From the NCBI GenBank assembly GCA_963842525.1, contig CAWJGT010000009.1, positions 1,888,001-1,952,000 on the forward strand: a DNA stretch of 64,000 nucleotides, written 5' to 3'. Each line of letters starts with the position of its first letter. The stretch's first letter is position 1. The DNA is from an uncultured Holophagales bacterium. Lineage in GTDB: Bacteria; Acidobacteriota; Thermoanaerobaculia; Multivoradales; UBA5704. The position numbers were made by a program, and so were the translations under genes. The notes below the pieces were generated by a model that ran no database searches, was not told where the DNA came from, and saw nothing but the letters and a program-made list of their open reading frames with translations. Below are positions 28,670 through 33,160 of this stretch, in pieces.

Positions 28670-28862
28670 TCCAGAGGGGGGCAAGCCCCCCTCTGGACTC
28701 CCCCCGAAAAGAAGTCCAGAGTTTCAGAGACCAGAGAAATCAGAGGCCAGAGGAGAATGGGAGCACGACGACACGGAACCCAATGAAGTCGCCGCGGTTG
28801 ACCGGCTCGCCCCAGCGGCGGCACGCACAACGGGCGAGCCTGGAGTCGAAGAAGCAAGAGCC
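28670..28862 (-). repeat. Putative DGR variable repeat, IMH-like CTCTG(G/A) tract and hairpin, copy 1
   Basis: Near-identical to 32969-33160 except at NNC codons; hairpin tccagagggggg-caag-cccccctctgga at 28670-28697. Confidence 0.78.
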
Positions 28863-31502
28863 GCCGCGGACAACCCGGAGGGATTGCGAAGGTGCTTCGA
28901 GATCCTCACGGCCATCCGTGCTCACGTAGGGATACGCCTTATCGACGCTTCTCGTCCACTCCCAGACATTGCCGCTCATCTCTTCGCATCCGGAGGGGCT
29001 GGCTCCTCCAGGGAAACAACCGACGGCACTGACCTCTCCGACTCCGCTCTCACCAACGTTCGCCCGGTCCGCATCGAAGCCGTCACCCCAGGGGTACCTC
29101 CGCCCATCGGTCCCGCGGGCCGCCTTCTCCCACTCCGCTTCGGACGGCAGGGTGACCACCAGGCGTCCGCTCGCGAGACCTTCCCAGAGGCTCCCCGCGG
29201 CTCCGCTCGTTTTCCTCCTTGGGCCAGGCGCTCCGCCGCCTCGCCTTTCAGCTTCTCTCCCAACCAACGGCAGTAGGCCAGGGCCTCGAACCAGGTGACG
29301 AAGATCGCCGGATGGTTGGGGTGGCCTTCCAGAGCCCTGCGGTCCCCGAGCTTCCAGAGAGGTGTCCGCCACGAAGGTGGAGAGCTGCTGGACCGTCACC
29401 GGGTACCGCGCCATATAAAGGGCCGGCAGGACCACTTCATGCTGCGGTCGCTCGTCTCCATAGCTTTCAGGATCGTCCTTCGCGCTCCCCATCCGGAACG
29501 GCCCGGCGGGGACCGCGACGAAACCCAGGAGCGGATCGCACGGCAGGAACCAGCGGTCCGGGTCGAAACGCGGATCGCCCAGCTTCGCCAGGGTACGGCC
29601 GGCCAGGGCCCGCTCGGTGGCGGGAAACCGGCCGTCGCCGAGGAGGCGGACCAGCCAGCGTCGCAGCCGCTCCAGCTTGGGCCGGTTGGCAGGGCTGACC
29701 TGGGAAAGGTTCGCCGATTCGGCTACCGCCTGGCCGGCGAGCTGGGCTCCCCAGGCGTCGGCCAGGTCGTTCTCCGGCGCGTCCGGCTCCCGCCAGCAGA
29801 GGGCCTCGGCAAGCTGCCAGACGCTCGGCACCGCCCCCCGCGCCGCCTTGGCCCCGGCGAGCAGCACCACCTCCCGCCAGCGCGCCGGATCCTTGCGCGC
29901 GAGCTCCGCCACCCGGTCCGGCCACGTGCGCTCTCCAGTAAGATGGCAGGCCGCCAGGTACTCCTGGAACGTGCGGTGCGGGAACGTGTACACCCCCACC
30001 CCGCGAGGCTCCAGCAGGCCCGCCCGGTCCCGCAGGAATTCGACGAGGAGACCGGGCCTCGTGTCGGGATTCCGGCTCACCCGCAGCAGGCTTGCCACCA
30101 ATTCCTTCTCTTCAAGGTCGGCGGTGCCGGTGGTGTCGCCCTGGGCGCCGTGGCATTCGCAGGCCAGCTCTTCGAGCACGGCGCGGACCTTCTCCCGCCC
30201 CACGTTCAGGAACTCGCTCAGGCTCGGCTGCGGCAGCACCGGCTCGCCGCGGGCGTCGAACCGCACCCGCTGCTTCTCCCAGACGTCGAGCAGGAGGTCG
30301 ACGGCGTTCGCGTAAAGCTCCTCCCGCCGTTCCGGCAGGCTGCCCCCGCGCCACGCATGGAGGCTTGCCATCAGGGTCAACAGCAACGGCCGCCGGGCGA
30401 GGCCCAGCAGGCGGTCCCCGGTAAAGACCGCGCGTTCGAGCAGCACTGCGCGGCCCTGTGCATCTTCCTCCGGGAGCCGGCCGAGTGTGGCCATCTGGGC
30501 ATACCACCGCGAGATGAACCAATGGATCTGCCCGCGGCTGAACGGCGCCAGCTCTCCTTCCGCAAAGCCCGGCAGCTTCCACTCCTGGTTGCGGTAGGCG
30601 TAGGTGCGGCTGGTCAGCAGGACCCGGCACTTCCCCAGGCTCTGGCAGAAGCTCACCACCGCTTGGCGGATCTGCTGGCGGCGCGTCTCCGCCTCCGGTA
30701 CTTCGTCGAGCCCGTCGAACAGCACCAGGCCGCCCTGCGTGAGCAGCTCCTCCTTGAGGTGCGGCAGGTACTCGCCGAGCCCGCACGCCTGCAGGTCGCG
30801 TCCGAGGAAGGCCCAGAGGTGCTGCGCCGTGGCCTCCTTGCCACGCTCCGGCAGCCCTGAGGCCGCGAAATCCCGCAGCACGACCCGCACCGGCAGGAGC
30901 GCCTTATGCCGCCAGGGCTGGGGTTTCTTCTCCCCTTCTTCTTCCTCTCGCGGCAGAGGAGAGCGCAACACCTCCAGGTTCACATCCTTCCGGCCGAAGG
31001 CTTCCCCGGCCAGGCAGAGGGCGACGAAGCTCACGAAGGTGCTCTTGCCGCTTCCCGGGTCCCCTAACAGGACGAGGCGGGGATGCCGGTCGAGCAGCGC
31101 CAGGGCGGAGAGGGGGCGCGGCCGATCCTCAGGGATCCCGGCAGGCCGTCCCTTGGAAAGCTTCTCCTCCACGCTCGTGGTGAGCAAGGCGGTGTAGACG
31201 GCATCGAGCCGCAGCCGCGCCTCACGGTCGTTGGCCAGAGCCGGATCGACTCCCGAGAGGGCCAGGGCCTCGGTCTGGCAGACGAGACGATGCAAGTATG
31301 CCGAGCGGAGCGTGGCTGCGTCCGCCCCCGGACCGGGCCGGACATAGGTGGTGACAATGTCGCGCCCAGCCGCCTGCCCACCCGCCCCGGCTGCCACGCC
31401 GCCGGACTGGACGATGGCGCCCGAGCCCAGGAGCTTGGCCTCCAGGGCGGCCACCTGGGCACGAAGGCGTTCGAGCTCGCTCGCGGAGTCAGGAACGGTC
31501 AT
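28740..31502 (-). CDS. NACHT NTPase + C-terminal FGE-sulfatase (C-type lectin fold) NLR-like protein with N-terminal Gly-rich motif
   Basis: [29 protein letters not shown] and [15 protein letters not shown] motifs [34 protein letters not shown] and GFR. Two compensating indels at about 29350-29200. Confidence 0.93.
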
Positions 31503-31974
31503 CGCCCCGGGTCCCTCGCCCCGTCCGGCCTGCCGAAATGTCGCCTGTTACACTGCCGCCTACCGCGACGCCTCCTTCACCCACCGCCACCGCGCCAGGA
31601 CCCTGGGCAATGGCGCCCGAGCCGTGGAGAGTCGCCTGATAAGACGTGCCCCGGCCAGCGGAGTCGAGGAGCTTCGCCACCTCGGAAGCCAGATCGGGAT
31701 CGGCTTCGAGGATCTTCCCAAGCTGGCGGCGCAGCCCCGCACGAGCGTCGTCGTCGTCCGGGGCCTCGGCGACCTCCTCCGCCGCTCCGAGGGCGCGGGG
31801 GCTCTCTTCCACCGGCTTGCGAAGCTTCGTCCAAAGCTTGCGGCCGAGCTCGAACGCCTCCTCTCCCACCTTCTTCCCTGCCGCCTTGACGGCCTCCGTG
31901 CCGCCGGTGATCAAGTGAGGCAGAACCGGCGCGAGAGCGATTACCAAGGCATCCGCGAGCAGCTTCAGGTCCAT
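31489..31974 (-). CDS. Bell-like (bacterial HeLo-like) helical protein with C-terminal putative amyloid motif
   Basis: Hydrophobic N-terminal helix, LW.KL and [21 protein letters not shown] pattern; tail [29 protein letters not shown]; overlaps the NLR start by 14 bp. Confidence 0.75.
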
Positions 31975-32030
31975 GCGGGCCTCCTTTCGGGCTCGTGCGG
32001 CTCCAATCCTATCGCGCTGTAGGCGGCGCC

Positions 32031-32260
32031 CCCCACTGTAGAGACGCCCCGTGGGGCGTCTCCGGGGCGTAGAAGACGGTTCGATCTGAAATGTACAGAC
32101 CGGACGGCAAGGTGCCGATGGCCCAATCAGAAGACATCAGGCGTCGGCGGACGGTGACCGGCCCTGTCAGAAAAAACATCGACGTGCCGGCGCACGGCTG
32201 TTGCAACCGGGAGGGTGTCGCCGCTGCGGAGACGCCCCACGGGGCGTCTCTACAGTGGGG
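32031..32260. repeat. GTAG REP pair upstream of the RAYT
   Basis: cccactgtagagacgccccgtggggcgtctcc and inverted ggagacgccccacggggcgtctctacagtggg. Confidence 0.9.
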
Positions 32261-32310
32261 GTGATGGTCACGGTTGCCTTGGCGGTGAATATCAACGATA
32301 ATGCGCTGGA

Positions 32311-32841
32311 ATGAGCGACACCTTGTACCGAAACCGGTTCCGGATTCCGTCTACCCGGTTGCCCGGCTGGGACTACGGCCAGGGCGGTACCTATTGTGTG
32401 ACGATCTGCACCCGGGGCCGGGTCTGTTGGCTGGGCGAGATCGTAGAAGGCAAGATGGTTCCTTCAGATCTCGGGGATATCGTCGCCGAGGAATGGGTGG
32501 AGATGGCACGTCGCCGTCCCCACGTGGACCTCGACGCTTGGATCGTGATGCCCAATCATGTCCATGGGATCCTCTGTCTCCAGCCGCCACATCTCAATGG
32601 GCGTCCGACGCCTTTAGGAGAGGCCATCGGACATTTCAAGGGGGCCTGCACCCAACGGATCTGGGACAGTGGACGACGAGATTTCGCCTGGCAGACGAGA
32701 TTCTTTGACCAGATCATCCGAAGCGACGACACCCTTCTGCGATTCCGGCGGTACATCATGGAGAATCCGCTCCGCTGGGAGGAGGATCGGCATCATCCAA
32801 AGATCGCTCCAGAAGAGCATCGTTGCTCCGGCCAACGATAA
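32311..32841 (+). CDS. REP-associated tyrosine transposase (RAYT, Y1 HUH)
   Basis: STRLPGWDY, YCVTICT, VMPNHVHGI, WQTRFFDQIIR and YIMENP motifs; flanked by GTAG REPs. Confidence 0.92.
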   Translation: MSDTLYRNRFRIPSTRLPGWDYGQGGTYCVTICTRGRVCWLGEIVEGKMVPSDLGDIVAEEWVEMARRRPHVDLDAWIVMPNHVHGILCLQPPHLNGRPTPLGEAIGHFKGACTQRIWDSGRRDFAWQTRFFDQIIRSDDTLLRFRRYIMENPLRWEEDRHHPKIAPEEHRCSGQR

Positions 32842-32849
32842 GGTTTCCT

Positions 32850-32921
32850 CCCACTGTAGAGACGCCCCGTGGGGCGTCTCCGGGGCGGAGAAGACGGTCC
32901 GATTTGAAATGCACAGACCGG
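32850..32921. repeat. GTAG REP plus tail; direct repeat of 32032-32103
   Basis: About 70 bp direct repeat with few mismatches. Confidence 0.88.
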
Positions 32922-32968
32922 CGGGACTCCCACCGCGATGCCATGTTCGCCCCTTCGAATTTCGAGCA

Positions 32969-33160
32969 TCCAGAGGGGGCAAGCCCCCTCTGGACTCCCC
33001 CCCAAGAAGAAGTCCAGAGTTTCAGAGTCCAGAGGATTCAGAGTCCAGAGGAGAATGGGAGCACGACGACACGGAATCCGATGACGCCGACGCGGAAGAC
33101 CGGCTCGCCCCAGGGGCGGCACGCACAACGGGCGAGCCTGGTGACGAAGAAGCAAGAGCC
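32969..33160 (-). repeat. Putative DGR variable repeat, IMH-like tract and hairpin, copy 2
   Basis: Matches copy 1; hairpin tccagaggggg-caag-ccccctctgga at 32969-32994. Confidence 0.78.

Follow-up and report, generated by a model that had tools for sequence, protein, structure and literature searches.

Two NACHT-FGE genes with variable ends

The window analysed here is a stretch of 64,000 nucleotides (G000:C9:1888001-1952000) from the genome of an uncultured Holophagales bacterium, a bin of 96.4% completeness assembled as 9.95 Mb in 34 contigs. Two neighbouring genes within it encode NTPases that end in an FGE-sulfatase domain, and the last ~120 nt of each carry the marks of a variable region (VR) written by a diversity-generating retroelement (DGR). 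Throughout, C-numbers denote contigs of this assembly (G000), L-numbers loci or contigs of other genomes, and G-numbers related genomes. The principal features, all on the minus strand, are as follows.

28740..31502, minus strand: gene 1, a NACHT NTPase with a C-terminal FGE-sulfatase (C-type-lectin fold) domain of the DGR target type; intact open reading frame (ORF) of 920 aa
33038..35914, minus strand: gene 2, a second NTPase-FGE target gene; four frame segments with breaks near 33337, 34630 and 34980
28761..28881, minus strand: VR1, CCTCCGGG...GTGCTC, homologous to the template repeats (TRs) of relatives; placed by alignment with the L143 and L145 TRs
33059..33179, minus strand: VR2, placed by alignment with the same two TRs
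28697..28760, minus strand: tail of gene 1, CCATTCTCCTCTG followed by CTCTGR repeats, starting where TR homology ends; stop codon at 28740-28742
32994..33058, minus strand: tail of gene 2, placed by alignment of the gene ends; stop codon at 33038-33040
28671..28696, minus strand: hairpin 1, CCAGAGGGGGG-CTTG-CCCCCCTCTGG, 11-bp stem
32970..32993, minus strand: hairpin 2, CCAGAGGGGG-CTTG-CCCCCTCTGG, 10-bp stem

Gene 1 matched the NACHT domain at aa 143-335 (PF05729, E 2.7e-9) and the FGE-sulfatase domain at aa 661-912 (PF03781, E 5.3e-39), and is collinear with its orthologue in L145 at 84% nucleotide identity. The orthologues of gene 2 are unbroken in L132 (957 aa) and L141. A tblastn search with the intact L132 protein traced gene 2 as segments 35914-34958, 35010-34633, 34628-33339 and 33334-33041; its translation contains the P-loop motif GDPGAGKT, and the FGE-sulfatase domain was recognised by Pfam on both C-terminal pieces (PF03781, E 2.9e-17 for the last). 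The VRs occupy the C-terminal end of this C-type-lectin-fold domain. With two target genes and a NACHT NTPase fused to a single VR-bearing C-type lectin (CLec)/FGE domain, the locus type fits the STAND/NACHT-CLec pattern.

Alignment of the two genes from their 3' ends reproduced exactly the seven codon differences reported in the initial annotation of this DNA (GAC/GTC, TCC/ACC, CGC/CCC, AAC/TTC, GGC/GTC, GAC/GGC and TTC/GTC), all of them NNC codons altered at position 1 or 2 within the last ~120 nt. The codons in between had been described as identical. This was slightly overstated, as the same 120 nt hold four further differences (GTC/GTG, GGC/GGT, ATT/ATC and GGG/GGA), each synonymous and at the third position. 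Upstream of the variable stretch, the differences were held to be largely synonymous; synonymous changes are present there, but mixed with replacements. Over their final ~400 nt the two genes share ~87-90% identity (87% at the amino acid level over the last 98 residues), versus 48% amino acid identity further upstream.

For counting, adenine sites were defined as the 23 positions with A in both of the foreign TRs from L143 and L145, and the remaining 97 positions served as other sites. Between VR1 and VR2, differences occupy 8 of these 23 adenine sites versus 4 of the 97 others (Fisher p = 1.7e-4), a clustering that exceeds chance.

Templates and the putative recipient mark in related genomes

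The DNA of the VRs matches 16 of 41 related genomes (G000 counted) and 12 of the 24 genomes of the same family. Across public genome contigs, an exact 24-mer of the VR end gave no match; a degenerate pattern of the VR end then retrieved 21 loci on 18 contigs labelled Thermoanaerobaculia, Holophagales or Acidobacteriota. A protein search of public genome contigs with the C-terminal domain returned relatives of at most 47% identity and was uninformative for the NACHT-FGE target family. On four of the 18 contigs (L136, L143, L145/146 and L149), a DGR-type reverse transcriptase (RT) lies no more than 6 kb from the tail, and in those four the TR sits between the target gene and the RT. The mismatches between VR and TR at these loci fall on TR adenines in the following proportions.

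L136: 21 of 21
L143: 16 of 17
L145, two VRs: 17 of 19 and 18 of 22
L149: 17 of 19

The ORF preceding the TR was tested in L136 and L145 and is bAvd-like in both (PF22296, E 1.6e-15 and 5.8e-16); it also matched NF033474 with an E-value of 1.5e-21, just below the cut-off. Translations of the relatives' RTs contain the motifs LPIGNLTSQ and YVDD.

The TRs of L143 and L145 have a scaffold nearly equal to that of VR1, VR2 and a third copy of the VR located on contig C4 of our genome. Differences between these sequences are distributed as follows.

VR1 and L143 TR: 16 of 23 adenine sites, 5 of 97 others
VR2 and L143 TR: 19 of 23 adenine sites, 3 of 97 others
VR1, VR2 and C4 against L143 TR, ranges: 16-19 of 23 adenine sites, 3-5 of 97 others
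VR1 and C4: 15 of 23 adenine sites, 4 of 97 others
VR2 and C4: 13 of 23 adenine sites, 0 of 97 others (p 1.3e-11)

VR2 and C4 have upstream flanks that, over 300 nt, are just 68% identical, and the scaffold of the two VRs agrees at 97 of 97 positions. A second pair of copies from our genome, C14a and C14b, was compared against the TRs of L149 and of a metagenome locus, L405. In this pair, 20 of the 27 adenine sites differ, as does 1 of the 99 others; their 473-nt shared stretch is 81% identical, with 60-nt windows outside the VR ranging from 77 to 88%. A scaffold preserved at 97 of 97 positions between flanks of 68% identity calls for templated overwriting combined with adenine-specific change, and we see no other explanation for it.

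The variable sites therefore do map to template adenines, as the initial annotation had supposed, with the mapping made on TRs of related genomes that include the collinear L145. That annotation was to be abandoned if neither the genome nor its relatives held a template and a DGR-class RT, with variable sites lying off the adenines; since relatives carry both template and RT, this is not the situation found.

The CTCTG(G/A) tract and GC hairpin that had been noted after the stop codon are present in both genes of the window, each hairpin starting 43 nt past the stop. When folded as DNA, the two 86-nt stretches gave -16.2 and -14.6 kcal/mol (z -2.4 and -2.5 versus shuffled sequences). The tail is kept in all target-family members of our genome and in 21 tail-bearing sequences of other genomes. 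Likeness between TR and VR runs to GTGCTC, beyond which the VRs go on as CCATTCTCCTCTG... and the TRs as CTCACGYTCTTC... (ACGYTCTTC...), the TR-specific 3' end then carrying a conserved CCGGAA.. / CCCGG stem. Within the 9.95 Mb there are four occurrences of the motif G5+C[TC]TGC5+, and all of them follow a target-family tail. One stem pair varies across the 13 family hairpins, being A-T in eight, C-G in five and unpaired in none; this switch may be one inherited change. Judged from these sequences, the hairpin appears specific to this target family, with its pairing kept through two-sided change. The position of the tail suggests a recipient mark like the initiation of mutagenic homing (IMH) site, and the hairpin would presumably act in targeting.

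In phage DGRs, the corresponding elements have GC stems of 7-10 bp and 4-nt loops of GRNA consensus, and lie 4-34 bp from the VR (Guo et al. 2011, PMC3240598). As in the Bordetella phage BPP-1, the element in the window is a GC-rich inverted repeat with a 4-nt loop, placed downstream of the VR and beyond the TR/VR homology; stem pairing is kept while the sequence varies, and VR and TR part right after the shared region (PMC3240598). Unlike in BPP-1, the stem is 10-11 bp long, the loop is CTTG, and 64 nt separate the element from the TR homology with a CTCTGR-repeat tract in between (PMC3240598). The hairpin thus resembles the BPP-1 element in kind, not in detail, and its role in target recognition is putative.

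At four loci of other genomes (L134, 6016-6101; L137; L138; L144), the family sequence past the tail breaks off within the hairpin (one such end reads ...GGGGGGCTTGCC), and unrelated DNA or the leader of the small ORF described below comes next. It looks as if the break point of a deletion or of cassette loss had fallen in or beside the hairpin loop.

The host genome and the junction between the genes

BLAST searches of the 34 contigs with the VR regions returned further copies, all of them coding and all of them ends of paralogous FGE-domain genes. The initial annotation had allowed for more targets, and a third copy of the VR1/VR2 scaffold plus five more distant family members bear this out.

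C4:104965-105129: third copy with the VR1/VR2 scaffold
C28:6177-6344, C14:204910-205090 and C14:203786-203966: a second trio, 30% different
C23:396779-396920 and C34:146334-146480: two single family members
C23:1970-2579: truncated FGE-domain gene with tail and perfect hairpin only

In total, the genome holds eight VR-type gene ends and one truncated copy versus a single, unrelated DGR. The truncated gene at C23:1970-2579, situated 2 kb from the contig end, lacks ~200 nt from just past the WEWT motif through the VR end and is a VR-less target, possibly produced by aberrant deletion or homing. At C14:203786-205090, two family gene ends converge with 0.9 kb between them; one of them is just a ~150-aa fragment. 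Nowhere in the genome is the DGR signature stronger than between C14a and C14b, yet a good hairpin is retained by neither, and their template is missing from the assembly.

A non-coding, adenine-rich copy of the VRs beside an RT and Avd had been predicted for this genome, and it is missing from the assembly by BLAST, tblastn and profile searches alike. The eight VRs, searched by BLAST (word size 7) against the 34 contigs, found paralogues only and no such copy. DNA comprising TR and spacer from four relatives matched the VRs alone in the same contigs, apart from one chance match in a coding gene. This 51-nt match to the L143/L145 spacers (C27:34400-34450) was rejected as a GC-rich coincidence within an ordinary coding gene whose surroundings are free of RT and Avd.

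With the L136 RT and Avd as queries, tblastn returned only the DGR on contig C3 (42% and 30% identity), group II intron RTs and an RT-Cas1. The RT profile PF00078 gave 18 matches, one of which is the DGR-type RT on C3 and 17 of which are multi-copy group II-type RTs and fragments together with the RT-Cas1. No match in the genome was obtained with PF05635, the older Avd-like family; the better Avd model, PF22296, matched once, at C3, with 37 bits. Candidate DGR RTs at C14:162 kb and C34:125 kb proved to be an RT-Cas1(-Cas2) and a group II intron RT fragment, respectively. The former, at C14:161859-163200, consists of an RT fused or adjacent to Cas1 and followed by Cas2 (an RT-Cas1 spacer-acquisition module), with apparent frame breaks.

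The sole DGR of the genome looks complete and is arranged as follows.

C3:958074-961942: whole DGR, comprising a NACHT-FGE target, a helix-turn-helix-like ORF, an Avd-like ORF, TR and RT
C3:960646-960790: TR
C3:960937-961942: RT
C3:959151-959295: local VR
C3:1390965-1391119: remote VR

Mismatches to this TR fall on its adenines at 15 of 16 positions for the local VR and 11 of 14 for the remote VR, 430 kb away. The Avd-like ORF and the RT together occupy C3:960.2-961.9 kb; the RT has the motifs LPIGAYTSQ and YVDD, and its frame as assembled is broken once between them. VR1 and VR2 had been described as remote targets of a template elsewhere in the genome; the assembly does not support this, the C3 DGR using another TR with two VRs of its own. 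On present data, VR1 and VR2 are orphans in this assembly.

The cognate cassette is also sparsely distributed among relatives, which were surveyed as bins of varying completeness, so that RT absences mean not found in those searched. An L136-type RT (at least 50% identity) was found in 2 of 40 relatives (G025 and G034) and in none of the 24 same-family genomes, though 12 of these carry the VR family. G041-G044, in which family loci are present, gave no match to this RT at E 1e-20 or better. DGRs of two genomes of the same genus, G001 (TR at L127:5669-5809, 16 of 16 mismatches at adenines) and G002, were discarded because they belong to other VR scaffolds. A loose TR pattern with 15 fixed bases occurred in at least 119 viral and at least 120 genome contig stretches, and BLAST identified no family TR among the 239 listed, a result that does not bear on carriage by phages. 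In metagenome contigs, a tighter pattern gave 22 loci: 20 represent an unrelated membrane-protein gene and two are true TRs (L405 and the partial L407), whose scaffold, where readable, is of the C14/C28 type and not of the VR1/VR2 type. As for public sequencing runs, none was found to contain this organism, and the best shares 0.10 of the sampled words of the window stretch; in four runs, all stored as contigs, 0 of 281 pieces were at least 99% alike, and short pieces from relatives covered conserved parts only.

The junction between the two target genes, where L145 carries its cassette, contains the following features in the window.

31489..31974, minus strand: small conserved ORF of 161 aa (MDLKLL...), taken from the ORF list and overlapping the start of gene 1
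32017..32962: insert between the target genes, delimited by synteny breaks; REP-like (repetitive extragenic palindromic) palindromes with cores at 32041, 32229 and 32859 around a RAYT gene
32311..32841, plus strand: RAYT-like REP-associated tyrosine transposase of 176 aa (NCBIfam NF047646, Pfam Y1_Tnp)

Window positions 28669-31986 correspond to L145 5922-9268 at 84% identity, and positions 32962-35915 correspond to the next gene of L145 at 85%, the two alignments covering 3.36 kb and 2.97 kb. The cassette of L145, with bAvd (10676..11008), TR (10494-10621) and RT, lies between these genes and is followed by the small MDLKLL ORF and the gene-1 orthologue; L136 shows the same order. The spans from tail to ATG are 1087 nt in the window, 1902 in L145, 2019 in L136, 81 in L141, 85 in L134 and 42 in L142; the L132 junction is similar to the compact ones of L141, L134 and L142. 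The insert of the window hence occupies the slot that holds bAvd-TR-RT in L145 and almost nothing in L132 and L141. The relatives' cassette queries revealed no cassette remnant ("scar") in the interval from hairpin 2 to the small ORF, and none in the rest of the genome.

The RAYT-like gene matched NF047646 with an E-value of 6.1e-17 (61.9 bits, the cut-off being 80 bits) and Y1_Tnp with 0.0015. The palindrome GAGACGCCCC..GGGGCGTCTC has 11 copies in the genome, three of which flank this single-copy gene, and two of its copies lie inside direct repeats of ~80 nt (about 32020-32110 and 32845-32925). A distant RAYT paralogue of 42% identity is present at C9:549158-549619.

The small ORF has no Pfam or NCBIfam match. 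It is kept upstream of the gene-1 orthologue in L145, L136, L141, L134 and L142, and a paralogue lies at C28:9084-9452. In the window, L136 (3588-4025) and L145 (8773-9438), the product begins MDLKLLAD, has an acidic middle and ends in a Gly/Ala-rich stretch with the motif GSGAIAQ, which recurs at the N-terminus of gene 1; the ORF always stands just upstream of a gene-1-type NACHT gene, whose start it overlaps. From this arrangement, its product could be an adaptor or partner of the NACHT sensor.

Frozen relics or active targets

VR1 and VR2 are very probably DGR-written variable regions, and at the level of the family the DGR reading is well supported: the target family and its cassette are conserved in Thermoanaerobaculia. 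In such a system, an error-prone RT working with bAvd would copy a template repeat rich in AAC codons and misread the template adenines, and the cDNA would replace the last ~120 nt of the CLec/FGE domain in NACHT "sensor" proteins. What marks a VR as recipient would be the tail (CCATTCTCCTCTG...) that follows it, together with the GC hairpin. VR1, VR2, the C4 copy and the five distant members would then be records of past, fairly recent diversification. The relatives' sequences suggest that a TR of the VR1/VR2 scaffold was formerly active in this lineage, and we infer that its cassette was lost rather than missed. We lean slightly towards the whole statement, that a DGR wrote VR1 and VR2, that the cognate cassette is absent from the genome and that the VRs are most likely frozen relics. 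Taken on their own, the true disappearance of the cassette from the organism is a proposition on which the evidence is evenly balanced, and the view of the VRs as frozen relics rather than currently mutating targets could equally well prove right or wrong.

An origin without any retroelement would make these sequences paralogous ligand-binding loops shaped by ordinary mutation and positive selection, with gene conversion keeping the scaffold. The much greater likeness of the last ~400 nt than of the rest does point to conversion between the tandem genes, and VR1 and VR2 have 12 non-A letters in common at adenine sites. Conversion, though, copies variable sites too and cannot yield 13/23 versus 0/97 or 20/27 versus 1/99; C is kept at position 3 of all differing codons, and the same sites are adenines in real TRs beside the relatives' RTs. 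Because the scaffold is unchanged and particular sites are scrambled in paralogues that have otherwise diverged, gene conversion or selection alone is insufficient, and we find this account hardly credible. Diversification of VR1 and VR2 in trans by the C3 DGR (C3:959-962 kb) with its own RT is just as implausible. That element does possess a DGR-type RT, an Avd-like ORF and a TR that serves a VR 430 kb away, so it can act at a distance. Yet its TR has a different scaffold and another 3' end (CTGCTCCCCGGCGCCCCGAGCT) and was not among the BLAST hits of VR1 and VR2; because a matching TR is needed, the C3 RT cannot write them. Its frame is moreover shifted as assembled, and it is just 42-45% identical to the RTs of the cognate cassettes.

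A more serious competitor, possible but on balance doubtful, holds that the VRs are active remote targets, rewritten in trans by one or two unseen cassettes residing in the missing ~4%, on an unbinned plasmid or phage, or in part of the population. The scaffolds of VR2/C4 (97/97) and C14a/C14b (98/99) are identical or nearly so despite diverged flanks, which indicates recent rewriting; VR1, VR2 and C4 retain intact tails and perfect hairpins; and diversification of incomplete loci in trans has been inferred for Thiohalocapsa PB-PSB1 (PMC10907252). In addition, family VRs stand without a cognate RT in many relatives, as would be the case if bins systematically missed the cassette. Against this, two different templates, one for the VR1/VR2/C4 scaffold and one for the C14/C28 scaffold, would both need to be missing, a point that supports loss. 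In all four relatives where the cassette is seen, it adjoins a target within one contig and is not part of any recognisable mobile element. A matching RT is likewise not found in G019, G013 and G022 (100% or 98% complete, in 100-170 contigs) nor in G042, where two family loci stand on contigs of ~1 Mb, and among the matches listed in public contigs, a TR of the VR1/VR2 scaffold is limited to L136, L143, L145 and L149.

Less probable again is that bAvd-TR-RT is a come-and-go module, gained and lost at the hairpin or carried on an element that bins miss, while the host keeps a standing set of NACHT-CLec targets whose recognition tails are intact. Such a module would explain why most VR-family genomes have no matching RT, why the junction occurs in three states (cassette, compact and RAYT/REP) with some junctions ending inside the hairpin, and why scaffolds are still identical at 97/97 and 98/99.

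Several observations weigh against the reading that we favour, in which a DGR wrote VR1 and VR2 and its cassette was then lost. As regards loss, the 0/97 and 1/99 scaffold differences between VR pairs imply that the last rewriting was recent, perfect hairpins are kept by VR1, VR2 and C4, and a 96.4%-complete bin in 34 contigs could lack a cassette that had failed to assemble or to be binned. The adenine mapping relies on TRs of other species, our own genome offering none for comparison, and the hairpin departs from the phage consensus in its loop (CTTG, not 5'-GRNA) and in the placement of its stem 64 nt past the TR homology. VR1 and VR2 moreover carry an identical non-A letter at 12 of the 23 adenine sites, where VR2/C4 share 8, VR1/C4 share 4 and the two VRs of L145 share 7. 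Under independent draws from one template, such sharing has a probability of ~3e-4 at 75% mutation per site; it is so improbable that VR1 and VR2 cannot be counted as two independent rewritings. Probably, one diversified VR was copied between the tandem genes and later changed at eight adenine sites, or else selection has favoured the same residues in both.

Gene 2 adds a further difficulty in its three frame breaks, one of them just ~100 codons ahead of the stop, and if the breaks are real it would be a pseudogene. The macB / macA efflux genes (window 24846-28303) are also split, into two and three frame pieces respectively, with MacA profile positions 10-95, 110-208 and 223-314 falling in three frames. 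Since macA, macB, gene 2 and the C3 RT are all split, the assembly looks indel-prone and we do not call gene 2 dead; the pattern suggests possible assembly indels in gene 2 instead of many pseudogenes in the region.

The architecture itself has been described elsewhere. Doré et al. (2024, PMC10907252) report DGRs with commonly two targets, in which a central STAND NTPase (NACHT or nSTAND1) is joined to a single CLec domain. Such cellular targets were termed "putative antigen sensors" of "clade 5D", exemplified by DGR 3 and DGR 6 of Thiohalocapsa PB-PSB1, and the same work describes incomplete loci or candidate remote targets within a genome, apparently diversified in trans, and transposons that reshape loci (PMC10907252). 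The locus of the window shares with these the two adjacent NACHT-CLec/FGE targets and, in its relatives, bAvd-TR-RT at the locus. It differs in its host, a member of the Thermoanaerobaculia (Acidobacteriota), and in that the cognate TR and RT are missing from the assembly and hence no donor in trans can be named. The main text of Doré et al. makes no mention of Acidobacteriota (PMC10907252). By architecture, the window locus is a member of the STAND/NACHT-CLec kind of DGR in another phylum and in an orphan state.

For the DGR field the finding is an ordinary one, cleanly documented. It offers a lesson for annotation, as DGR finders that begin from the RT miss such loci, which the adenine-site signature of paralogues and the templates of relatives recover. 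The locus provides a clean natural example of targets outliving their diversifying cassette; should the cassette instead turn out to have escaped binning or to be mobile, the consequences would extend to the action of DGRs in trans on many host genes. With it, the Thermoanaerobaculia join the bacteria whose NACHT sensors, which resemble the nucleotide-binding leucine-rich repeat receptors (NLRs), bear binding tips written by a retroelement.

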